The notes under the pieces were generated by a model that was not told the origin of the DNA, made no database searches, and saw only the letters and a program-made list of their open reading frames with translations. A program made the translations under genes and the position numbers. This document shows positions 18,432-27,139 of a stretch of DNA of 30,503 nucleotides, piece after piece. The DNA comes from a virus. The DNA lies in the UHGV virus genome UHGV-0123901, one strand, 5' to 3'. Numbering within the stretch: the stretch's first letter is position 1; every line of letters starts with the position of its first letter.

Positions 18432-18604
18432 TGTCAGGAGTCCTGAATAGTGATTAGAGGAGTCACATGTCGGCATCAGTTTCCCGACGATGCGCATCCT
18501 CCGCCATCAGTCCCGGATGGCTTATCACTGACACAACAGCACCTTAGCGAATCGCGGGACGCGACTCAGTAGCCTTGCCGTGTATTCATCACGGCGAGGT
18601 ATTC

Positions 18605-20377
18605 ATGACCATCACCACAGACACCACTCTTTTACACGACCCGCGTCGTCAGGCGGCGCTGCTGTACTGGCAGGGGTTTTCCGTGCCGCAGATTGCCGCC
18701 ATGTTGCAGATGAAACGCCCGACGGTGCAGAGCTGGAAACAGCGCGACGGCTGGGACAGCGTTGCCCCCATCAGCCGTGTCGAAATGAGTCTGGAAGCGC
18801 GGCTGACCCAGCTCATCATCAAACCGCAGAAAACCGGCGGTGACTTCAAGGAAATTGACCTGCTCGGACGCCAGATTGAACGACTGGCACGGGTCAACCG
18901 TTACAGTCAGACCGGCAACGAGGCAGACCTTAATCCGAACGTCGCTAACCGCAACAAAGGCGGGCGTCGCAAACCGAAAAAGAATTTTTTCAGTGACGAG
19001 GCCATCGAAAAGCTGGAGCAGATTTTCTTTGAGCAGTCTTTCGAATATCAGTTGCACTGGTATCGCGCCGGGCTTGAGCACCGCATCCGCGATATCCTGA
19101 AATCCCGCCAGATTGGCGCAACGTTTTATTTTTCCCGCGAGGCGCTGCTGCGCGCCCTGAAAACCGGTCATAACCAGATTTTTCTGTCGGCCAGTAAAAC
19201 GCAGGCGTATGTGTTCCGCGAATACATCATCGCCTTTGCCCGGCTGGTTGACGTTGACCTGACCGGTGACCCGATTGTCCTGGGCAATAACGGCGCAAAA
19301 CTGATTTTTCTCGGCACCAACTCCAACACCGCACAGAGCCATAACGGTGACCTGTACGTCGACGAGTTTTTCTGGATCCCGAATTTTCAGGTACTGCGTA
19401 AGGTGGCATCAGGTATGGCCTCACAGAGTCACCTGCGCTCGACCTATTTCTCCACCCCGTCCACGCTGGCGCACGACGCCTATCCGTTCTGGTCGGGTGA
19501 ACTGTTCAACCGGGGACGCGCCAGCGCCGCCGAACGCGTGGAAATCGACGTCAGTCATAACGCCCTTGCCGGTGGGCTTCTCTGTGCGGACGGCCAGTGG
19601 CGGCAGATTGTCACCATTGAGGACGCCCTGAAAGGTGGCTGCACGCTGTTCGACATTGAGCAGCTTAAACGCGAAAACAGCGCCGACGATTTTAAAAACC
19701 TGTTCATGTGTGAATTTGTTGACGACAAGGCGTCGGTATTCCCGTTCGAGGAGCTGCAACGCTGCATGGTCGACACGCTGGAAGAATGGGAAGACTATGC
19801 GCCGTTTGCCGCGAATCCGTTCGGCTCCCGTCCGGTCTGGATTGGTTACGACCCGTCACACCGTGGCGACAGCGCCGGATGCGTGGTGCTGGCACCGCCG
19901 GTGGTGGCCGGTGGCAAATTCAGAATACTTGAGCGTCACCAGTGGAAAGGCATGGACTTTGCCACTCAGGCGGAATCCATCCGCAAACTCACCGAAAAAT
20001 ACAACGTCGAATACATCGGTATTGATGCCACCGGCCTCGGTGTCGGCGTGTTCCAGCTCGTGCGCTCGTTCTATCCCGCCGCGCGCGATATCCGCTACAC
20101 GCCGGAAATGAAAACCGCAATGGTGCTCAAGGCAAAAGACGTTATCCGCCGTGGCTGTCTGGAATATGACGTCAGCGCCACCGACATCACCAGCTCGTTT
20201 ATGGCTATTCGCAAGACCATGACCAGCAGCGGACGCAGCGCCACCTATGAGGCCAGCCGCAGCGAGGAAGCCAGCCACGCCGACCTCGCCTGGGCGACCA
20301 TGCACGCCCTGTTAAATGAGCCACTCACCGCCGGTATCAGCACCCCGCTGACATCCACCATTCTGGAGTTTTACTGA
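18605..20377 (+). CDS. P: terminase large (ATPase) subunit (P2 gpP-like)
   Basis: 590-aa product starting MTITTDTTLL with a GAGG RBS upstream; its stop overlaps the Q start (TGATGA). Confidence 0.9.
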   Translation: MTITTDTTLLHDPRRQAALLYWQGFSVPQIAAMLQMKRPTVQSWKQRDGWDSVAPISRVEMSLEARLTQLIIKPQKTGGDFKEIDLLGRQIERLARVNRYSQTGNEADLNPNVANRNKGGRRKPKKNFFSDEAIEKLEQIFFEQSFEYQLHWYRAGLEHRIRDILKSRQIGATFYFSREALLRALKTGHNQIFLSASKTQAYVFREYIIAFARLVDVDLTGDPIVLGNNGAKLIFLGTNSNTAQSHNGDLYVDEFFWIPNFQVLRKVASGMASQSHLRSTYFSTPSTLAHDAYPFWSGELFNRGRASAAERVEIDVSHNALAGGLLCADGQWRQIVTIEDALKGGCTLFDIEQLKRENSADDFKNLFMCEFVDDKASVFPFEELQRCMVDTLEEWEDYAPFAANPFGSRPVWIGYDPSHRGDSAGCVVLAPPVVAGGKFRILERHQWKGMDFATQAESIRKLTEKYNVEYIGIDATGLGVGVFQLVRSFYPAARDIRYTPEMKTAMVLKAKDVIRRGCLEYDVSATDITSSFMAIRKTMTSSGRSATYEASRSEEASHADLAWATMHALLNEPLTAGISTPLTSTILEFY

Positions 20378-21411
20378 TGAGCAAGAAAAAAGGGAAAACA
20401 CCGCAACCTGCGGCAAAAAAAATGACCGCCAGCGCCCCGAAAATGGAGGCATTCACCTTTGGTGAGCCGGTGCCGGTACTCGACCGCCGTGACATTCTGG
20501 ATTACGTCGAGTGCATCAGTAATGGCAGATGGTATGAGCCACCGGTCAGCTTTACCGGTCTGGCAAAAAGCCTGCGTGCTGCCGTGCATCACAGCTCACC
20601 GATTTACGTCAAACGCAATATTCTGGCCTCGACATTTATCCCGCATCCGTGGCTTTCACAACAGGATTTCAGCCGCTTTGTGCTGGATTTTCTGGTGTTC
20701 GGTAATGCGTTTCTGGAAAAGCGTTACAGCACCACCGGTAAGGTCATCAGACTGGAAACCTCACCGGCAAAATATACCCGCCGTGGGGTGGAAGAGGATG
20801 TTTACTGGTGGGTGCCGTCCTTCAACGAACCGACAGCCTTCGCGCCCGGCTCCGTGTTTCACCTGCTGGAGCCGGATATTAATCAGGAGTTGTACGGCCT
20901 GCCGGAATATCTCAGCGCCCTTAATTCTGCCTGGCTGAATGAGTCGGCCACGCTGTTCCGCCGAAAGTATTACGAAAATGGCGCACATGCCGGATACATC
21001 ATGTACGTCACCGATGCCGTGCAGGATCGCAACGATATCGAAATGCTTCGCGAAAACATGGTGAAGTCGAAAGGCCGCAACAACTTTAAAAACCTGTTTC
21101 TCTACGCCCCACAGGGGAAAGCCGACGGCATTAAAATTATCCCGCTCAGTGAAGTGGCAACGAAGGACGATTTTTTTAATATCAAAAAAGCCAGCGCCGC
21201 TGACCTGCTTGACGCGCACCGCATCCCCTTTCAGCTGATGGGTGGCAAGCCGGAAAACGTCGGGTCGCTGGGCGATATTGAGAAAGTGGCAAAGGTCTTT
21301 GTCCGCAATGAGCTTATCCCGCTACAGGACAGGATCCGCGAGATAAACGACTGGCTCGGTCAGGAGGTCATCCGCTTTAAAAACTACTCACTGGACACTG
21401 ACAACGGCTGA
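20377..21411 (+). CDS. Q: portal protein (P2 gpQ-like)
   Basis: 344-aa ORF adjacent to cos. Confidence 0.9.
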   Translation: MSKKKGKTPQPAAKKMTASAPKMEAFTFGEPVPVLDRRDILDYVECISNGRWYEPPVSFTGLAKSLRAAVHHSSPIYVKRNILASTFIPHPWLSQQDFSRFVLDFLVFGNAFLEKRYSTTGKVIRLETSPAKYTRRGVEEDVYWWVPSFNEPTAFAPGSVFHLLEPDINQELYGLPEYLSALNSAWLNESATLFRRKYYENGAHAGYIMYVTDAVQDRNDIEMLRENMVKSKGRNNFKNLFLYAPQGKADGIKIIPLSEVATKDDFFNIKKASAADLLDAHRIPFQLMGGKPENVGSLGDIEKVAKVFVRNELIPLQDRIREINDWLGQEVIRFKNYSLDTDNG

Positions 21412-21415
21412 ACAT

Positions 21416-21439
21416 CGCCGCCTGCGGGCGGCTTTTTTA
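21416..21439 (+). terminator. intrinsic terminator downstream of Q
   Basis: GC hairpin cgccgcc-tgcg-ggcggc followed by a run of six T. Confidence 0.6.
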
Positions 21440-21580
21440 CATCCCGTCATCACGCCCTCACACGCTCACCACCGCACAAAACAGCCCGCAGGCAAACCAA
21501 CGCCTCAACGGACAGACTAAGCGCCGTCACGACGCGCTGAGACGCTGAAAAAATAAAATCAGCACCACCGCCAGCGCGCA

Positions 21581-21599
21581 GTGCTTTCCCCGCCTCGCC
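21581..21599. other. cos cohesive-end site (P2-type 19-nt)
   Basis: gtgctttccccgcctcgcc is the exact reverse complement of the P2 cohesive end GGCGAGGCGGGGAAAGCAC as I recall it; located beside Q as expected. Confidence 0.85.
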
Positions 21600-21674
21600 C
21601 GCCCGCTTCGTGGAGCGGTTTTAATGCAGTTGTATAACGACGCAGACTTCCTGACAGTTCTATCTACTCATAAC

Positions 21675-21699
21675 AAAAAAAAGCATTACAGATGAATGC
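21675..21699 (-). terminator. possible weak intrinsic terminator at the end of the cargo operon
   Basis: On the minus strand, a 5-bp stem (gcatt/aatgc) followed by a run of eight T, about 50 nt after the stop of the 266-aa gene. Confidence 0.3.
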
Positions 21700-21748
21700 A
21701 AAATCATGCAACTAATGAAGGCGTACAGGCTAGGTGAGAAAATAAATG

Positions 21749-22549
21749 CTATTTCATCAGTCCTATAAAAGCTGCTGTCATGCTACCCAATGCACCAATA
21801 GCAGCAAATAACGTTGCCCAAAACATGCTTTTTTGGCTACGAATATTCTCATTATATCGTTGTTCTTCATTATTGAAGTGATTTAACGTATTAATTGCTT
21901 TTCCGGTGGGCTTATAACCATCTCGAGTCTTTGAAATGTCCCCACTCTCTACAAGGGAATCCAGACATAAGCGAAGTTCTTTTATGAGTCGAGAATAATC
22001 ATCATGGTAGATCCATAAACGTCCTGCCACATCATTCATAATTAGAGTCTCCCTGAATGGTTTTTCCCCTTGCTGCTCTCGATAAATTCTGACAATTGCA
22101 GCCAATACCGTCATTACATCAGTTATCTCCTGCTTGCGTTGTCGATACAAATACTTCTCACGACTTAGCTTTTTATTTTGACGATCCGCTATTCTTCTAA
22201 ATCTAAGTACATTAAAATAAGATAAATCATCCAATGAGTCAAACTTCAATTCATGCGCATGATAATAATAAATTCCAGAAAAGGAATTTGATGTAAGTCG
22301 TTCTGGTTTAAGAATTGTATCAATATTGAAAGTTTTATTCTGATGACTCCACTTCTTAACCTTTATAATTCCGTTTGAATAACTATCAAAAAGATAGTCA
22401 TTACCCTCATCATCCTTAATGTAAACGGAATACATATCGTAATGAATGGCACTCTCATACATTAAACTAATTCTGCCATTTTCAGGAGTCTTCTTTGACT
22501 CAAAAACTTTCAGAAACTTTACAACATCAACTTTATTTTTATGCCTCAT
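21749..22549 (-). CDS. hypothetical protein with single C-terminal hydrophobic helix; candidate effector of the RT module
   Basis: 266-aa ORF in AT-rich cargo DNA, 165 bp downstream of the RT gene on the same strand; C-terminus MFWATLFAAIGALGSMTAAFIGLMK; no domain recognised by eye. Confidence 0.6.
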   Translation of the reverse strand: MRHKNKVDVVKFLKVFESKKTPENGRISLMYESAIHYDMYSVYIKDDEGNDYLFDSYSNGIIKVKKWSHQNKTFNIDTILKPERLTSNSFSGIYYYHAHELKFDSLDDLSYFNVLRFRRIADRQNKKLSREKYLYRQRKQEITDVMTVLAAIVRIYREQQGEKPFRETLIMNDVAGRLWIYHDDYSRLIKELRLCLDSLVESGDISKTRDGYKPTGKAINTLNHFNNEEQRYNENIRSQKSMFWATLFAAIGALGSMTAAFIGLMK

Positions 22550-22714
22550 ACATTCAGCCTTGACTGTAAACCACCATATTAAATGATTGCACTAACGACT
22601 CGTACTACTTATTGTTCAACCCAGTCAGAACTGAAAGCAAACTTTTGCACTAACTGGGTTGCCATCATAATATATCGATACTAATAAAATCCGATATTAT
22701 TATATTTTAGTGTA

Positions 22715-23665
22715 TTAAACCGATGTATTTGCTTTCAACGTCAATACTTTCGATCTATAACGTTTTTCAATAACCCCCATTGAATATAAACGACCAAATA
22801 ATTTCTTTGCTGTTCTTGTATCTTTAGCTTGTTCTACATCTTTTATTATTTTCCAAAGCTCTATTTCTCTAGCCATAAGATAATGCTGTTCGTTCCTAAC
22901 CTTTAAGCTATCCCCAAATACTATAACTCCTGTCACTAGTTTAGGCTTATCCCCAGCATATAATTTCGTTTTAGTTGGATGCATAGCGTGTCCATGCTTA
23001 TTAATAATCTTACGAATCACGCTGCAAAACAATCGATTTACATTATCTCCAGAAAAAGTAAGATCATCGACATAAACTGTCATTTTCACACGAAACTTCT
23101 CACAAAGTTGATTCATTTCATCAAACATTCTGGAATTTGCAAAATATGCTAATGGCATACTAATCCGACTACCCGTTGGCAATCGTTCATGACAGGTACA
23201 TATATGAGATAAAATATCAGCCACATCTGGCGACATTTTCATTATTGAGAAAAAGAAAGAAAATATCATTTCTCTTGTTGTTGACGGAAAAAAAGATCTA
23301 ATATCTGTAGTCATCAACTTCTGATGATTGAGATGTGCTTTAGCATTTGTTATGTTAGAGCAACTTTTTTTACCAGAGTGTAAATATTCGGGCATAGCTA
23401 TACGCAATAATAAACTCGCAATACGTGTATGCACTACATCTAATTTTTCTAAAGGCTTTTGTATTTTCCGTATTTTATTTTTTTTAGAAAGCTGTTCAAA
23501 AATAGAGTAATTACCCTCATCCCTTTTCAAAACTGATAGGTCATTGATACTAACGCAGAGCAAGCTAGCCAACTTTTTTTTACTTTTAAGTTTATAAAGT
23601 GGCGAATCCGTAATAGGATAAGATTTATTTTTAGTTGAAACCTTCAGCTTAATCCTTTTTTTCAT
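22715..23665 (-). CDS. reverse transcriptase, retron-type
   Basis: 316-aa ORF with NAKAH...DIRSFFPS (NAxxH and finger motifs), LPTGSRISMPLAYFAN (motif B-like), VYVDDLTFSG (YxDD catalytic motif C) and KLVTGVIVFG (the VTG triplet typical of retron RTs). Confidence 0.85.
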   Translation of the reverse strand: MKKRIKLKVSTKNKSYPITDSPLYKLKSKKKLASLLCVSINDLSVLKRDEGNYSIFEQLSKKNKIRKIQKPLEKLDVVHTRIASLLLRIAMPEYLHSGKKSCSNITNAKAHLNHQKLMTTDIRSFFPSTTREMIFSFFFSIMKMSPDVADILSHICTCHERLPTGSRISMPLAYFANSRMFDEMNQLCEKFRVKMTVYVDDLTFSGDNVNRLFCSVIRKIINKHGHAMHPTKTKLYAGDKPKLVTGVIVFGDSLKVRNEQHYLMAREIELWKIIKDVEQAKDTRTAKKLFGRLYSMGVIEKRYRSKVLTLKANTSV

Positions 23666-23963
23666 TTCTTTTACTTACCCACTCTAGTATATCCAGAACT
23701 TTCCCTGCCAGTTTTAAACGTAAACTTTTGGATAATCGTCCTTGTGTCCCTAATGATTCTGAAAAAAAGACCAAAGAGGATACTGGCATGTCGAAATGGG
23801 AAGCATAACGCTGTAAAATATCAATCGACGGCACCCATAGTCCGCTTTCAATCTCTACTATTCTGCTTTTTGGAATACCTAAAGATGATGATAAGTCAAC
23901 TATTGATTCTTTATGGTATTGCCTTATTAAACGAAGGGCTTTATGCAACATAGGCAACTCCAT
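23649..23963 (-). CDS. XRE-family helix-turn-helix protein, translationally coupled to the RT gene
   Basis: 104-aa ORF with HTH signature SIVDLSSSLGIPKSRIVEIESG; its stop overlaps the RT start by 17 nt. Confidence 0.6.
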   Translation of the reverse strand: MELPMLHKALRLIRQYHKESIVDLSSSLGIPKSRIVEIESGLWVPSIDILQRYASHFDMPVSSLVFFSESLGTQGRLSKSLRLKLAGKVLDILEWVSKRNEKKD

Positions 23964-23987
23964 CTTGTTGAAACTAGGGAGGACGCA

Positions 23988-24143
23988 TTACTCATCTCCC
24001 CCTTCAAAGAAGTCAACTGCGCGAGTGATCCAATAAAGTAGTCTAATAAGCCACTTAATTACACCCCAAGCGTTAGGAGTCTTCTTTTTCCGGTTTAACT
24101 TGTTTTGCGCCTGCTGTTCGTTGGTTACTTTATCATTTTTCAT
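23988..24143 (-). CDS. small hypothetical protein (51 aa) with hydrophobic segment; may instead be non-coding
   Basis: AAGGAG RBS 6 nt before the ATG (MKNDKVTNEQ...), hydrophobic AWGVIKWLIRLLYWITRAV; a longer 97-aa upstream extension seems less likely. Confidence 0.3.
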   Translation of the reverse strand: MKNDKVTNEQQAQNKLNRKKKTPNAWGVIKWLIRLLYWITRAVDFFEGGDE

Positions 24144-24245
24144 GATCTGCTCCTTATGTCCACGGTGTGCAAACGATATGTCTGCTCCAGCACCATGGCT
24201 CGCCCTCATAAGGATGAGATTGAACAGCACCAGCTCCCTGCTCCA

Positions 24246-24272
24246 CGAACCCTTTGTCGCCCAAAGGGTTCG
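24246..24272. repeat. perfect 11-bp stem hairpin (cgaaccctttg / caaagggttcg, 5-nt loop)
   Basis: Read directly; not followed by a T-run on either strand, so not an obvious terminator. Confidence 0.5.
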
Positions 24273-24585
24273 AATACCCATACGCTATGCCGCGTGAATC
24301 AGAGACTCCTGTCGCTGACAGAGGCGTTGCGCGGGGTAAATGTTAGAAAGCATTAGCTTTCCACGGGCAATAAATACCCAATTGATGGCGATTTATCTCA
24401 CTAACTAACCAATGATTGAATCATACCAAGTAAACCGTTGTATTTGATCTCTCCTTATATAATTTTTTGTTATTAAACAACATAAATGAATAACAAAATG
24501 AAATAAAACTAATCTTCATCCGTCTCATCACAAGAAATATCAACAAATCAAGAATATCGTTTGATTATCTAGTCTTTCCAATTCA

Positions 24586-26874
24586 TTAAAATAAAAACAA
24601 TGCTTCATCTTCAATTCCCGGCCAAACATCAGCAACCGGATACGTGAATTTTTTCCCGTCATAATTTACAGTTGCTCCACGCGCCAGCGCCTCAAGTTCC
24701 CATCGCTGCGGCCTGATACCGTTCTGAGCAAGGTCAACGCGGATACGGGTAATTTGCATTCGTTCCGACCGGGTCAGCCTGGCTGATGGAGCTATTTCAT
24801 GCGGTTTTAACGGGCTTCCGTTTCTTTGCTGACGGTTTGGTGTTCTCAGGTCGTGTTTTAATGCGCCCCTGAGCGCCCTCACGACCTCCGGGTCATTCCA
24901 TTCGATAACACCATCATCAACCAGATTAAGCACTGCTGCGGCGTGCTCAGAAGGCGTGGGAGCCGGTAACGAAGTATCACCACCGGTGAGCTTTCCACAG
25001 TTATTGACAGGACTCCGAGGCGCGGCGATGCCGCTTTTTAAAGTCAAAGGCTCCACGACCGGAACTTTCGGCACAATGCGCCAGTCCGTCGTTCTGGTGA
25101 TATGAATATGACGCGCGCCGAGATGTGGCGCGTAAATGCCGACCACTCTCTCGACTTCTTCCTCGTACTCGTTAACTTCATCCGACGGGCTACGGGCGAC
25201 TCTGACAGTCTGGCAATCGCGCGGAACGTTTGCCCCACCCTGCGCACTGATATACAACGCAAAATCGCCACTGTCTGCGGCAGCGCGTGCAGCCTCGACG
25301 CGTTCGTCAAACTCATCAGCAATGCTGACGCCGCGAGGCAATTTGCGTAGTTCACGGTAAGCCCCCATTGTCGGCAGACCAACCGTTTTAAATTGCGGGA
25401 TGCGCCACGTTGACGCCCATGCAGTAACAGCCGCGGCAGTATCTTTCAGAGGTCTGCCGGTATCGTTATCGAGCTGACCATCCAGTGCATAGCCGTCGAT
25501 GTTTTTTGAGATGTATTTCGCGATATACCCCGCAGCACCGCCCCGATTAAGGTGTTTTGCCTGAAAACGGTTTCGCGCGGCTCCTCTTTCGTCGCCATCC
25601 TCTTTGAGCGCATAGCGACGCATGATTTCAATAATCTGGTTACGCTGGCGTGGATTACAAAAAAGCATCATATGCCAGTGCGGCGTTCCGTCGTGGTGTG
25701 GTTCAACAACACGCAAACCGTAGACCTGTAAATCATTATCCTTGAATGCCGTGCGCATCAGGCTCCAGATACGGCAGAGATAACGCTGCGCATCCTTTGG
25801 ATTAAATGCCTCATCGTTCCAGCCGTGATTAAGCTGCACGGTTTTACTTTCGCCTTTTCCGACCTGACGTGTCGGGTGATACTTTGACGGCGCGGTCAGC
25901 GTGATAAACATCCCCACATCACCCTCTGCAGCGGCGTAACGCTCAATACCGGCAATGGTGTTCATCAGCTCCATCCGGCGAATTTCAGGATTAGAAATAC
26001 TTCCCATCACCTTACTGATAAGGTCGATGCGCTCGCCGGTTTCCCTGTTTTCAAGGTCACACGATTTAAGAAATTCCAGATTTGCCTGGCGGCGTGCACG
26101 CACATCACGAATGGCATGTTTACTGGCATAAGGAGAACGGTCTTTATTGACTTCCCCGACAGCTATCAGTAACGCCTCATGCCAGCGCATACGCTGGCCT
26201 TTAAGCTGATGAGTCCACCACTCATCGTTAAACAGACGGGCAATGGCAGAATATGCCTGCCTCGTGGTCATCTGCCCTTTACGGTATTTTTTCCAGTAGA
26301 GAGGGGAAATATTGAAAGCACGTGCAGCGCCAGCAACATGACCATACAGGTGAGCCTGCGCCTCATCCGTAAACAGCGATTCTTTTTCGCCATGCGCATC
26401 CACCCAGGCATCGCTGAGTTCCTCATACATCATGAAAAGCTGCGATGAGATACGGGCAGCAAACTTTTTCAGCTCCTTGTCATTCATTCCCGGCAGGCGC
26501 GCATAGTGGTCACGCTCTGCCAGAAACAGTAACGACGCGTCGGTGTTCATTTCATGGCGCTGATTCACACGCTCAATGCGCGGCCATAAACGACGCTGAA
26601 AAGTGGATGTGAGGAAATAAAACCCGTGCACCGGGCTTTTATTGCGCCGGATGTAGTCATAGCGTGAAGTAAACAGCGAGCGCAAAAAGTAAGGCAGGCG
26701 GTTAATCGTGGATAAAACACCTTGCACCTGACGCATCTCGTCACGTGTAAGGGGTCTTTCGCGCCCGACAGCCTCGCGTGGCGCGTTCCATGCATAAGCA
26801 CCGGTAAACGCCTTACCGGTGCCTGCGGCAAATGCTGACGGAGGGACAAAACGCCCGGAGGCTTTAACGGCCAT
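24586..26874 (-). CDS. A: rolling-circle replication initiator (P2 gpA-like)
   Basis: 762-aa product starting MAVKASGRFVPPSAF (internal start of the 776-aa ORF), matching the P2 A N-terminus. Confidence 0.9.
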   Translation of the reverse strand: MAVKASGRFVPPSAFAAGTGKAFTGAYAWNAPREAVGRERPLTRDEMRQVQGVLSTINRLPYFLRSLFTSRYDYIRRNKSPVHGFYFLTSTFQRRLWPRIERVNQRHEMNTDASLLFLAERDHYARLPGMNDKELKKFAARISSQLFMMYEELSDAWVDAHGEKESLFTDEAQAHLYGHVAGAARAFNISPLYWKKYRKGQMTTRQAYSAIARLFNDEWWTHQLKGQRMRWHEALLIAVGEVNKDRSPYASKHAIRDVRARRQANLEFLKSCDLENRETGERIDLISKVMGSISNPEIRRMELMNTIAGIERYAAAEGDVGMFITLTAPSKYHPTRQVGKGESKTVQLNHGWNDEAFNPKDAQRYLCRIWSLMRTAFKDNDLQVYGLRVVEPHHDGTPHWHMMLFCNPRQRNQIIEIMRRYALKEDGDERGAARNRFQAKHLNRGGAAGYIAKYISKNIDGYALDGQLDNDTGRPLKDTAAAVTAWASTWRIPQFKTVGLPTMGAYRELRKLPRGVSIADEFDERVEAARAAADSGDFALYISAQGGANVPRDCQTVRVARSPSDEVNEYEEEVERVVGIYAPHLGARHIHITRTTDWRIVPKVPVVEPLTLKSGIAAPRSPVNNCGKLTGGDTSLPAPTPSEHAAAVLNLVDDGVIEWNDPEVVRALRGALKHDLRTPNRQQRNGSPLKPHEIAPSARLTRSERMQITRIRVDLAQNGIRPQRWELEALARGATVNYDGKKFTYPVADVWPGIEDEALFLF

Positions 26875-27139
26875 ATGAGCCAAAAGCCTCTGAACAACGC
26901 TTGCTGAGTTGCTCAACCTGCGCGTTTAAATCAGCAAAAGACTTTGCGCTTCCGGTCAGAATATCGTGATGCATCAGGCCGGAAACGAGCTGGCTTAATT
27001 TCGGGTAATAACCAACCACCGCCAGCCATTCCTGACCGGCATTTTTACCGCTTTCCGCTCTCTTTTTCTCGTGGAGAATAAACTGAAAGCTGTCACTGGT
27101 AACGACATAACGTTCGCCAATTTCGATACGAATACTCAT
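26864..27139 (-). CDS. hypothetical early protein (P2 orf83 position)
   Basis: 91-aa ORF in the operon-packed block between B and A. Confidence 0.55.
   Translation of the reverse strand: MSIRIEIGERYVVTSDSFQFILHEKKRAESGKNAGQEWLAVVGYYPKLSQLVSGLMHHDILTGSAKSFADLNAQVEQLSKRCSEAFGSYGR

Follow-up and report, generated by a model that had tools for sequence, protein, structure and literature searches.

The closest described relatives of the present locus are two Type VI retrons, for which different mechanisms have been put forward in two preprints of 2025-2026. In Retron-Vpa2 from Vibrio parahaemolyticus, the helix-turn-helix (HTH) protein co-immunoprecipitates with the reverse transcriptase (RT) and the hybrid RNA (hyRNA); an R7D mutant of the HTH protein is toxic, and the loss of the protein raises the msDNA level (Zhang et al., 10.1101/2025.10.22.683967). 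The enrichment of the hyRNA was the same in a dRT mutant, and the native promoter was described as constitutive (10.1101/2025.10.22.683967). In Retron-Sen3 from Salmonella, the HTH protein acts as an antitoxin against the SP and co-purifies with the RT (Garcia-Rodriguez et al., 10.64898/2026.04.27.721009). The small proteins (SPs) also differ: the Vpa2-type SP has about 54 aa, an aromatic helix and a ...FDGGDT tail, whereas the SPs of cluster cl2075 have 75-79 aa, a polar N-terminal extension and a ...DWMK tail. Another Type VI retron, Retron-Eco12 from E. coli, was called phylogenetically related to Retron-Vpa2; it defends against lambda-vir and has no detectable basal msDNA (10.1101/2025.10.22.683967). 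Compared by description only, Retron-Eco12 could be the locus reported here or its 83.5%-identical relative in O157:H7.

The window is the whole stretch of viral DNA that was analysed (30,503 nt). It carries on its minus strand an operon with the order candidate promoter, structured RNA, SP (51 aa), HTH (100 aa) and RT (316 aa). There is good reason to regard the product of the HTH gene as the accessory HTH protein of a retron that belongs to Type VI and, within it, to the Retron-Vpa2-like ('Large') lineage; a P2-like prophage carries this retron as cargo. The retron is located in the gpA-gpQ defence hotspot of the prophage, and the cargo has a GC content of 32-36% versus 51-58% for the backbone. 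As expected for a Type VI retron, an HTH protein is encoded beside the RT (HTH_VI 2.5e-31, 100 aa, 17-nt overlap), and an SP gene lies directly upstream of the HTH gene. The SP-HTH-RT order, with a small ORF bearing a Shine-Dalgarno (SD) sequence and an overlapping RT start, recurs in 35 genome loci and in 14 close relatives. Public E. coli contigs with a complete retron of this kind number in the hundreds. In one locus (L049) the retron cassette alone occupies the hotspot. A 266-aa protein with a C-terminal TM segment (21749-22549) was considered as the retron effector and rejected, because the cargo downstream varies from relative to relative and L049 has none, and homologues of the protein occur in P2 hotspots without a retron.

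The PADLOC models, rather than Pfam alone, were decisive for the family assignment of the HTH protein and the RT. The RT matches PADLOC RT_VI at 1.4e-105 (profile positions 1-278 of 279), versus 1.3e-44 for the next-best retron type; Pfam RVT_1 gave 32.6 bits only, and the matches to the retron St85/Ec67 family were below cut-off. The retron-type RTs are marked by NAXXH (region X), VTG (region Y) and the catalytic YxDD motif (PMC7736814); all three could be read from the translation, as NAKAH (107-111), VTG (244-246) and YVDD (198-201). With WP_000746343.1, a 'Large'-lineage leaf of Type VI near a V. parahaemolyticus entry in the published tree, the RT shares 81% identity; this placement and the RT_VI match put the RT in the Type VI RT group (retron clade 3). 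A domain search against HTH families, which the preliminary description of the locus had proposed, is answered by PADLOC HTH_VI, which matches the HTH protein end to end (2.5e-31). Pfam HTH_3, HTH_19 and HTH_31 match it below their cut-offs only (HTH_3, PF01381: 21.7 bits versus 23 for the single sequence), and some of its homologues have precomputed PF01381 matches.

The SP has a polar N-terminus, a hydrophobic C-terminal helix and the tail FFEGGDE, and is matched by phrog_15287 at 1.1e-34. It aligns to the Vpa2 SP (pairwise E 1e-5, about 27% identity); it is unlike the cl2075 SPs of Sen3, Yersinia and Xenorhabdus (Table S3) and falls outside that cluster. The Vpa2-like lineage was assigned because of this SP similarity and the relatedness of the RT. 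The Sen3/cl2075 lineage had been assumed at first from a Yersinia enterocolitica protein that is 74% identical to the HTH protein; Table S3 and the published tree spoke against it. The SP ORF ends 36 nt before the HTH start, and every locus examined had an SD-bearing small ORF before the HTH gene, at a distance of 10-117 nt (mostly 25-55 nt). Longer SP versions of 97 aa and 80 aa were rejected, since their upstream extension is closed or in different frames in the relatives.

Table 1. Features of the Type VI retron locus, with coordinates in the window.
Feature	Position	Strand	Basis or remark
Retron reverse transcriptase	22715..23665	minus	316 aa; RT_VI match, RVT_1, motifs
HTH 3' end / RT 5' end overlap	23649..23665	minus	17 nt, HTH stop codon included
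HTH gene, corrected CDS (start almost certain)	23649..23951	minus	100 aa; HTH_VI match, invariant start Met, PGAP 303 nt, dN/dS
HTH maximal ORF	23649..23963	minus	104 aa, ATG start
HTH Shine-Dalgarno GGAG	23957..23960	minus	6-nt spacer before ATG at 23951; read from sequence
Predicted hybrid RNA (hyRNA)	23961..24414	minus	about 450 nt: leader, SP coding sequence, 3' inverted repeat
IR2, 3' arm, SP-HTH intergenic spacer	23969..23981	minus	pairs with IR1
SP, putative small toxic effector	23988..24143	minus	51 aa; 156 nt by PGAP in identical loci
SP RBS AAGGAG	24151-24156	minus	
GGGCGA direct repeat, second copy	24200..24205	minus	loop beside anti-RBS
Anti-RBS UCCUUAUG	24207..24214	minus	predicted to pair with SP RBS arm CAUAAGGA at 24151-24158
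IR1, 5' arm of long-range stem closing SP-containing domain	24234..24245	minus	pairs with IR2
Perfect 11-bp hairpin, loop GGCGA	24246..24272	minus	candidate msd 3' end; 100% complementary
GGGCGA direct repeat, first copy	24257-24262	minus	loop of perfect hairpin
Long stem-loop, candidate msd template	24275..24338	minus	hypervariable core 24295-24320
Candidate extended -10 promoter TGgTATGAT	24420..24428	minus	read from sequence

A structured leader of about 270 nt, supported by covariation, is located upstream of the SP gene. The ends of the predicted hyRNA are both guesses, the 5' end from the candidate promoter and the 3' end from published RNA-seq of homologues. The region folds with a z of -4.3. 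In the consensus of the close relatives, 96.5% of the cells were paired and 24 pairs had changed on both sides (11.1±2.0 in shuffles), and with the more distant relatives included, 83.6% were paired (41-45% in slid controls) and 65 pairs had changed on both sides (versus 38.7±3.8); the structure and the covariation count come from the same alignments, so that their agreement is inflated. The structured RNA upstream of and spanning the SP gene that characterizes a Type VI retron is therefore present in silico. An Rfam scan of positions 21000-25000 at E≤1 gave no match, and the Type VI hybrid RNA is not represented by any Rfam family. The candidate -10 element was not reported by a generic promoter scan; its TG-n-TATGAT pattern is conserved in most close relatives (alignment columns 46-55). 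Both this promoter and the msd boundaries are candidates. A pairing of the HTH SD with 24428-24431 (helix 1) was discounted, as it shows no covariation and its 5' arm overlaps the candidate -10, and therefore the arm is probably not transcribed.

Within the hyRNA alignments, the candidate msd stem-loop (helices 6-8) has a conserved base and a variable, indel-rich centre. [quoted passage not shown] The IR1-IR2 stem is 100% paired in the close relatives and 94% paired with the distant ones, including five pairs with compensatory changes; the SP-HTH spacer is non-coding yet nearly invariant, and IR2 ends a few bases before the HTH SD. The SP RBS and AUG are both located in predicted stems. This layout agrees with the published accounts of the hyRNA. 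No exact 6-8-mer was repeated in all ten relatives; GGGCGA emerged when a repeat in at least six of the ten was accepted, and it was found in nine of them. It is conserved in Vibrio; Xenorhabdus and Thorsellia have it in a form shorter by one base (GGCGA). The Vpa2 paper probably refers to this element as '7 nt direct repeats' (10.1101/2025.10.22.683967).

The likely mechanism is that of Retron-Vpa2: the leader and the SP coding sequence would make up a single hybrid RNA, with the ribosome-binding site of SP locked in a stem. The HTH protein and the RT would bind this RNA, and the HTH protein would restrain reverse transcription and be required for the silence of SP. Phage recombination or anti-RecBCD proteins would permit the build-up of msDNA, which would open the riboregulator; the SP would then be translated, and growth of the infected cell would halt as abortive infection. 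The HTH complex, the repression of reverse transcription, the SP toxicity and the triggers are drawn for this locus from the literature on its homologues. The transfer of the Vpa2 mechanism to the window retron is uncertain, because Vpa2 and Sen3 differ in mechanism and the window SP shares only 27% identity with that of Vpa2.

A mechanism as demonstrated for Retron-Sen3, which is also of Type VI and has an equal gene order (10.64898/2026.04.27.721009), might apply instead, although this seems rather unlikely. The SP would then be translated constitutively, and the HTH protein would act through its C-terminal helix as a direct antitoxin, independently of the RT and the ncRNA; phage inhibition of RecBCD would free the toxin post-translationally. 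The window HTH protein does share the domain plan, including an amphipathic C-terminal helix in the model (residues 83-98) that has an invariant Trp. However, the window SP (51 aa) is Vpa2-like and differs from the three-helix cl2075 SPs of 75-79 aa, and the window RT belongs to the 'Large'/Vpa2 lineage. Moreover, the anti-RBS pairing would sequester the SP Shine-Dalgarno; this stem is invariant in the close relatives and mostly kept with the distant ones (83% paired, two compensatory pairs changed on both sides), and therefore translational control is indicated. The Vpa2-type and the Sen3-type mechanisms are not necessarily mutually exclusive. A speculative combination, to which we give a low probability, is that the msDNA-driven hyRNA switch may also set the flow of ribosomes and transcripts to HTH-RT, which would allow feedback re-dosing of the two coupled proteins at a fixed ratio; the HTH protein would then be both RT brake and SP antitoxin in this E. 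coli lineage, merging Vpa2 and Sen3. Such control is conceivable because IR2 ends a short way before the HTH SD and the RT start lies inside the HTH 3' end.

The AlphaFold model of the HTH protein (pLDDT 80) showed a five-helix XRE/Cro-C1 domain at residues 2-68; two C-terminal helices (75-80 and 83-98) come after it. SinR, DdrO, C.BclI and CapH superpose on it at 0.7-1.5 Å over about 60 residues, and 434 Cro is also among the DNA-binding repressors that share the fold of the N-terminal 60 residues. A profile of 36 HTH sequences matches the solved XRE-family proteins PezA, CylR2, SinR, HipB and DdrO (E 4e-6 to 4e-3), and the PHROG and NCBIfam matches are transcriptional regulators. Transcriptional regulation was also the original suggestion of Mestre et al. 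2020 (PMC7736814). These similarities might suggest a classical XRE-type repressor or autoregulator of the retron promoter, like HipB, PezA or CapH, for which the HTH/RT overlap would be operon compaction; a transcriptional regulator of the module was likewise one of the two roles offered in the preliminary description. This reading is improbable, since the HTH-motif helices, including the recognition helix, rank with the protein's least conserved regions (1.3-1.7 bits), whereas helix 1, which contains R7, and the SSLVFFSES segment hardly vary (0.4 bits). The latter two suggest a conserved protein or RNA partner. In addition, in the published data the HTH protein binds the RT and the hyRNA and affects reverse transcription and translation, not the transcript level, and neither paper supports a regulator of the module. 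A non-exhaustive look near the candidate promoter noticed no palindromic operator conserved among the relatives. Homology to Retron-Vpa2 and Retron-Sen3 supports the other role offered, that of a nucleic-acid-binding part of the system.

The 17-nt overlap of the HTH ORF with the RT start was confirmed (shared positions 23649-23665). The RT ATG (23663-23665) is embedded in the HTH codons AAT-GAA-AAA, and the junction alignment showed the same position in the close relatives, without a Shine-Dalgarno sequence upstream. Among 36 loci from alpha-, beta- and gamma-proteobacteria, about 33 have a plausible RT start between 5 nt after and 44 nt before the HTH stop. Translational coupling of HTH and RT is plausible from this arrangement: the overlap most likely ties RT translation to HTH translation, and the RT would thus not be produced without its brake. 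The RT could also initiate independently on the A-rich leader, in which case the two genes would be uncoupled. A -1 frameshift at the in-frame A-AAA-AAG in the overlap was rejected. It would enter the third frame, which has a stop after three codons and is not that of the RT, and the junction alignment shows no conservation of the heptamer; therefore no HTH-RT fusion is expected.

The HTH gene almost certainly starts at the second ATG (23951) and encodes a protein of 100 aa (11 kDa), because Met5 of the 104-aa ORF is the start in all homologues (M invariant in 46 homologues), PGAP gives 303 nt (100 aa) in identical loci, and the first ATG is replaced by GTG, ACG or other codons in the relatives. 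The GGAGT before the second ATG is kept in the relatives. The weak RBS reported earlier resulted from the choice of the non-conserved first ATG; it holds for that codon only, and not for the ATG at 23951 with its GGAG and 6-nt spacer. The ORF itself is genuine and of the XRE/Cro-C1 type, as claimed (HTH_VI 2.5e-31, 46 homologues, dN/dS about 0.1). It is under strong purifying selection, with synonymous change saturating (dN/dS 0.085-0.155 at dS 0.5-1.5, pairwise against eight relatives). That the interval 23649-23963 might instead yield a structured non-coding RNA, as the large structured RNA directly upstream (about 23961-24414) could suggest, is already computationally refuted and has virtually no probability left, given these dN/dS values, the ORF start and length kept in 46 homologues, an ORF RNA that folds no better than shuffles (z = -0.05), and a conserved structure that stops at the HTH RBS.

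The HTH-RT finding is real but known, as both the overlap and the role of the HTH protein have already been described. The locus raises no new question; its value is annotation. PGAP labels the genes 'reverse transcriptase family protein', 'helix-turn-helix domain-containing protein' and 'hypothetical protein'; these three, together with an unannotated RNA, make up a complete Type VI retron. The preliminary description lacked the name of the system, the structured RNA and the gene for the SP toxin upstream. The locus is also a handy native-host case for resolving the current conflict between the mechanisms published for the two Type VI retrons, and its clean set of close relatives delimits the hybrid RNA and the conserved loop repeat.

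SinR, DdrO, C.BclI, CapH, HipB and PezA share the five-helix fold with residues 1-60 of the window HTH protein (rmsd 0.7-1.5 Å), and several of these XRE/Cro-C1 regulators and antitoxins are negative regulators of toxins or defence systems. The window HTH family differs from them in its near-invariant helix 1 and SSLVFFSES segment and in its C-terminal helical extension; unlike these regulators, the Type VI HTH proteins have the reverse transcriptase and RNA as documented partners, and no operator is known.

Retron-Sen3 (cl2075) has the same SP-HTH-RT order and a cluster 2_1 HTH gene overlapping or abutting the RT gene, as in the window. The structured leader is also similar: it has a stem-loop at its 5' end, another that is long and variable, and IR1-IR2 around the SP gene. 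The SP family (75-79 aa, three helices) and the RT subclade are different. Retron-Sen3 itself has constitutive ssDNA and post-translational control, whereas Retron-Vpa2 is under translational control. The SL3 of Sen3 and the 'long stem loop' of Vpa2 are the counterparts of the window stem-loop at 24275..24338.

The window retron is known from its sequence alone, and its likeness to Retron-Vpa2 was judged from the SP sequence and the published description of the latter; on this basis, both are arranged as ncRNA-SP-HTH-RT. Their SPs are short (about 51-54 aa), begin with a polar stretch, continue as an aromatic/hydrophobic helix and close with (D/E)GGD(T/E). Their hybrid RNAs measure about 450-470 nt, hold the RBS and AUG in stems, and carry a 3' inverted repeat as well as a conserved loop repeat. 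The HTH N-terminus MLHKALR with R7 and the 'Large' RT lineage are also shared. The two retrons differ in host and carrier, the window retron being located in an E. coli P2-like prophage, and their SPs are about 27% identical. The candidate msd of the window together with its hairpin has about 93 nt, versus the reported 86-nt msDNA of Retron-Vpa2.

The HTH ORF was correctly sighted; the Type VI retron to which it belongs is a known system, of which it is a recognised component. The PADLOC profile HTH_VI matched the HTH protein end to end (2.5e-31), and RT_VI matched the RT over 278/279 positions (1.4e-105), with the next retron type 60 orders of magnitude worse. The RT also has the retron hallmark motifs (NAKAH, YVDD and VTG) as defined in PMC7736814. 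Mestre et al. (PMC7736814) described Type VI as clade-3 RTs accompanied by Cro/C1-HTH proteins of cluster 2_1, which are small (91-110 aa), and often by one more small protein. The system and its HTH component are already described; exact sequences of the RT, HTH and SP (the small toxic protein) occur in 208, 586 and 424 public contigs, respectively. The analysis revises the start codon of HTH, adds the SP gene and the hybrid RNA (both missed by the preliminary description), assigns the retron to a Vpa2-like lineage, and places the downstream 266-aa gene outside the system. The features are listed in the table.

Features of the retron cassette and its surroundings in the window
Feature	Position	Strand	Remarks
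Large terminase	18575-20377		P2 backbone
Portal	20377-21411		P2 backbone
266-aa protein	21749-22549	-	C-terminal transmembrane helix; 165 nt downstream of RT; phrog_7611
RT ORF	22715..23665	-	316 aa; NAKAH, YVDD, VTG
HTH ORF as first listed	23649..23963	-	104 aa
HTH CDS, corrected	23649..23951	-	100 aa; starts at Met5 (ATG) of the 104-aa ORF
HTH Shine-Dalgarno	23957-23960	-	GGAG; 6-nt spacer to ATG
IR2	23969-23981	-	pairs with IR1; within the nearly invariant SP-HTH spacer
SP gene	23988..24143	-	51 aa; AAGGAG RBS; upstream of HTH
SP AUG			within a small hairpin of the predicted hybrid RNA
Anti-RBS	24207-24214	-	pairs with SP RBS arm 24151-24158
Direct repeat GGGCGA	24257-24262 and 24200-24205	-	in the hairpin loop and beside the anti-RBS; conserved out to Vibrio
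IR1	24234-24245	-	pairs with IR2
Perfect 11-bp hairpin	24246-24272	-	covarying stem, fixed GGCGA loop
Long stem-loop	24275-24338	-	variable core; candidate msd
Two short hairpins			predicted hybrid RNA elements
5' stem-loop	24399-24414	-	5 bp; predicted hybrid RNA element
gpA replication endonuclease	24586-26916		P2 backbone

The two overlapping ORFs of the preliminary description were recovered at 23649..23963 (-) and 22715..23665, with 17 nt in common. The HTH start codon was revised. A search of 5.8 billion proteins gave 46 homologues, typically 98-106 aa long, and the first residue of each is aligned with Met5 of the 104-aa ORF, an invariant Met; the PGAP annotation of identical E. coli loci also gives a gene of 303 nt. 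Relatives have other codons in place of the first ATG. The RBS was called weak because this non-conserved ATG had been chosen as the start; the conserved one is preceded by GGAG at a 6-nt spacing. The dN/dS of the ORF against eight relatives was 0.085-0.155 (dS 0.5-1.5), and its RNA was no more structured than shuffled sequences (z = -0.05); a structured non-coding RNA instead of a protein is therefore ruled out for this interval. The HTH identity was confirmed by the family profile, which matches solved XRE-family proteins (PezA, CylR2, SinR, HipB and DdrO), whereas Pfam HTH_3 scored slightly under its cut-off (21.7 against 23 bits). The AlphaFold model (pLDDT 80) can be superposed, over some 60 residues, on SinR, DdrO, C.BclI, CapH and 434 Cro (0.7-1.5 A), and has two more helices after the HTH domain (residues 75-80 and 83-98).

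The SP gene is annotated by PGAP in sister genomes and matches phrog_15287 (1.1e-34). Longer readings (80/97 aa) were dropped, since the extension is not conserved in frame among relatives. In the mechanical ORF list the 97-aa SP ORF spans 23988-24281 (-), and its 46 added N-terminal codons overlap conserved RNA stems. These codons are in another frame or closed in relatives, and thus only the 51-aa product is conserved.

The 491 nt that cover the predicted hybrid RNA (24440 to 23950, minus strand) have a fold z-score of -4.3. In the alignment of ten P2-borne relatives, strongly conserved blocks flank a hypervariable, indel-rich core, a pattern typical of retron template RNA. The RNAalifold consensus, derived from these same ten sequences, contains 134 pairs with 96.5% of the cells paired; 24 pairs changed on both sides, compared with 11.1+-2.0 after shuffling (0/500) and 2-7 after sliding. 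The structure was then transferred to a 13-sequence alignment adding Vibrio, Xenorhabdus, Thorsellia and Acinetobacter. Pairing was kept at 83.6% against 41-45% after sliding, and changes on both sides were counted in 65 pairs, compared with 38.7+-3.8, although the structure is derived from these sequences. A 14-nt stretch of the SP gene (24069-24082, codons K-T-P-N-A) is also 86% complementary to 24303-24316, which lies in the variable core of the candidate msd. The partner sequences differ in O157 and other relatives, and the complementarity appears to be window-specific. An AT-rich inverted repeat, perfect over 10 nt (TTTTGTTATT ... AATAACAAAA, 14 nt apart, 24465-24498 (-)), lies past the gpA stop and ahead of the candidate promoter of the retron, and is common only to the closest relatives.

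One genome per species was scanned for the arrangement, which gave 35 loci of gamma-, beta- and alpha-proteobacteria. All 35 have a small ORF (33-78 aa) bearing a Shine-Dalgarno sequence, and the end of this ORF is 10-117 nt (mostly 25-55 nt) before the HTH start. The RT has a plausible start from 5 nt after to 44 nt before the HTH stop in about 33/36 loci, with typical overlaps of 4, 23, 26 and 35 nt. The HTH codons AAT-GAA-AAA enclose the RT ATG in close relatives, and no Shine-Dalgarno sequence precedes it; translational coupling is a plausible reading of this arrangement. Within the overlap, 23652-23664 (-) contains A-AAA-AAG in the HTH frame, the dnaX-type -1 slippery heptamer. A -1 frameshift from HTH to RT was rejected: it would enter the third frame, stop after 3 codons and miss the RT frame, and relatives do not keep the heptamer. 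In the E. coli strain E2 locus (L001), otherwise 99.3% identical, the RT is annotated as a frameshifted pseudogene by an A5-to-A6 expansion at nt 217 of the gene. HTH and SP are intact there, a notable point given that SP is a toxin.

In the window, a P2-like prophage, the cassette is placed between gpA and portal. This cos-proximal hotspot holds old/tin in P2 and many defence systems including retrons (Rousset et al., PMC9122126). Within 19500-26500 the GC content is 32-36% in the cargo (retron and 266-aa gene) against 51-58% in the backbone, consistent with horizontally acquired cargo. Close relatives in Enterobacteriaceae, Citrobacter, Cronobacter, Enterobacter, Serratia and Yersinia occupy the same site. 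The content after the RT varies: nothing (locus L049), an FRG-domain gene, a DUF8093 gene, a 246-aa gene, or the 266-aa gene of the window. The 266-aa protein had no Pfam, NCBIfam or PADLOC match. It was rejected as a retron part and regarded as neighbouring cargo, because its homologues (52-72% identity) in Enterobacter/Cronobacter P2-like prophages lie in the same hotspot without a retron; a so far uncharacterised role in defence or exclusion is possible. These homologues always come after a 243-aa gene, which is absent from the window. In the Yersinia locus (L044, 5150-5890), the gene after the RT, on the same strand, codes for a 246-aa protein; this too has a C-terminal TM helix, but no sequence similarity to the 266-aa protein. 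Membrane-anchored cargo beside Type VI retrons is recurrent and non-homologous. Directly after the portal stop, a strong terminator-like GC hairpin with a T-run (21415-21432 (+)) lies at the border where the conserved phage backbone meets this cargo.

In Retron-Vpa2, the hyRNA, RT and HTH co-immunoprecipitate; toxicity results from HTH R7D or from deleting the non-coding hyRNA part, and msDNA increases about five-fold when HTH is lost (10.1101/2025.10.22.683967). The SP is translationally silent before msDNA accumulates and is turned on by msDNA in trans alone; the triggers are lambda Red proteins (10.1101/2025.10.22.683967). In Retron-Sen3, the constitutively made SP is neutralised by HTH without RT or ncRNA, and the trigger is RecBCD inhibition (10.64898/2026.04.27.721009). 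Within an overall reading held with good confidence, a Vpa2-type model is somewhat favoured for the window retron. A Sen3-type antitoxin role of the HTH, not exclusive with it, seems less likely. A purely transcriptional role is improbable: in the window protein, conservation is lowest in the helices of the HTH motif (1.3-1.7 bits) and highest in helix 1, which includes R7, and in the FDMP-VSSLVFFSES segment (0.4-0.6 bits). This pattern fits conservation of an RT/RNA/SP partner better than conservation of an operator.

In the Vpa2 hybrid RNA, which is three-armed, the RBS and AUG lie in stems; it also contains a 3' inverted repeat, and its 7-nt loop repeats are conserved (10.1101/2025.10.22.683967). 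The predicted window RNA is similar in layout, and also agrees with the IR1-IR2 and 5'-stem-loop description of Sen3. The window SP resembles the Vpa2 SP in its basic middle, aromatic helix and FxGGD tail, unlike the SPs of cl2075 (the Sen3 lineage), which are 75-79 aa. The RT shares 81% identity with WP_000746343.1 (E. coli O157:H7), a leaf of the 'Large' lineage near a V. parahaemolyticus entry in the published tree; Vpa2 was assigned to this lineage in published work. Sen3 kinship, first assumed, was dropped on the SP resemblance and the RT tree position, and on sequence the window retron is assigned to the Vpa2-like lineage. The E. coli relative of Vpa2, Retron-Eco12, protects against lambda-vir (10.1101/2025.10.22.683967), and may be the window element or its O157 cousin.
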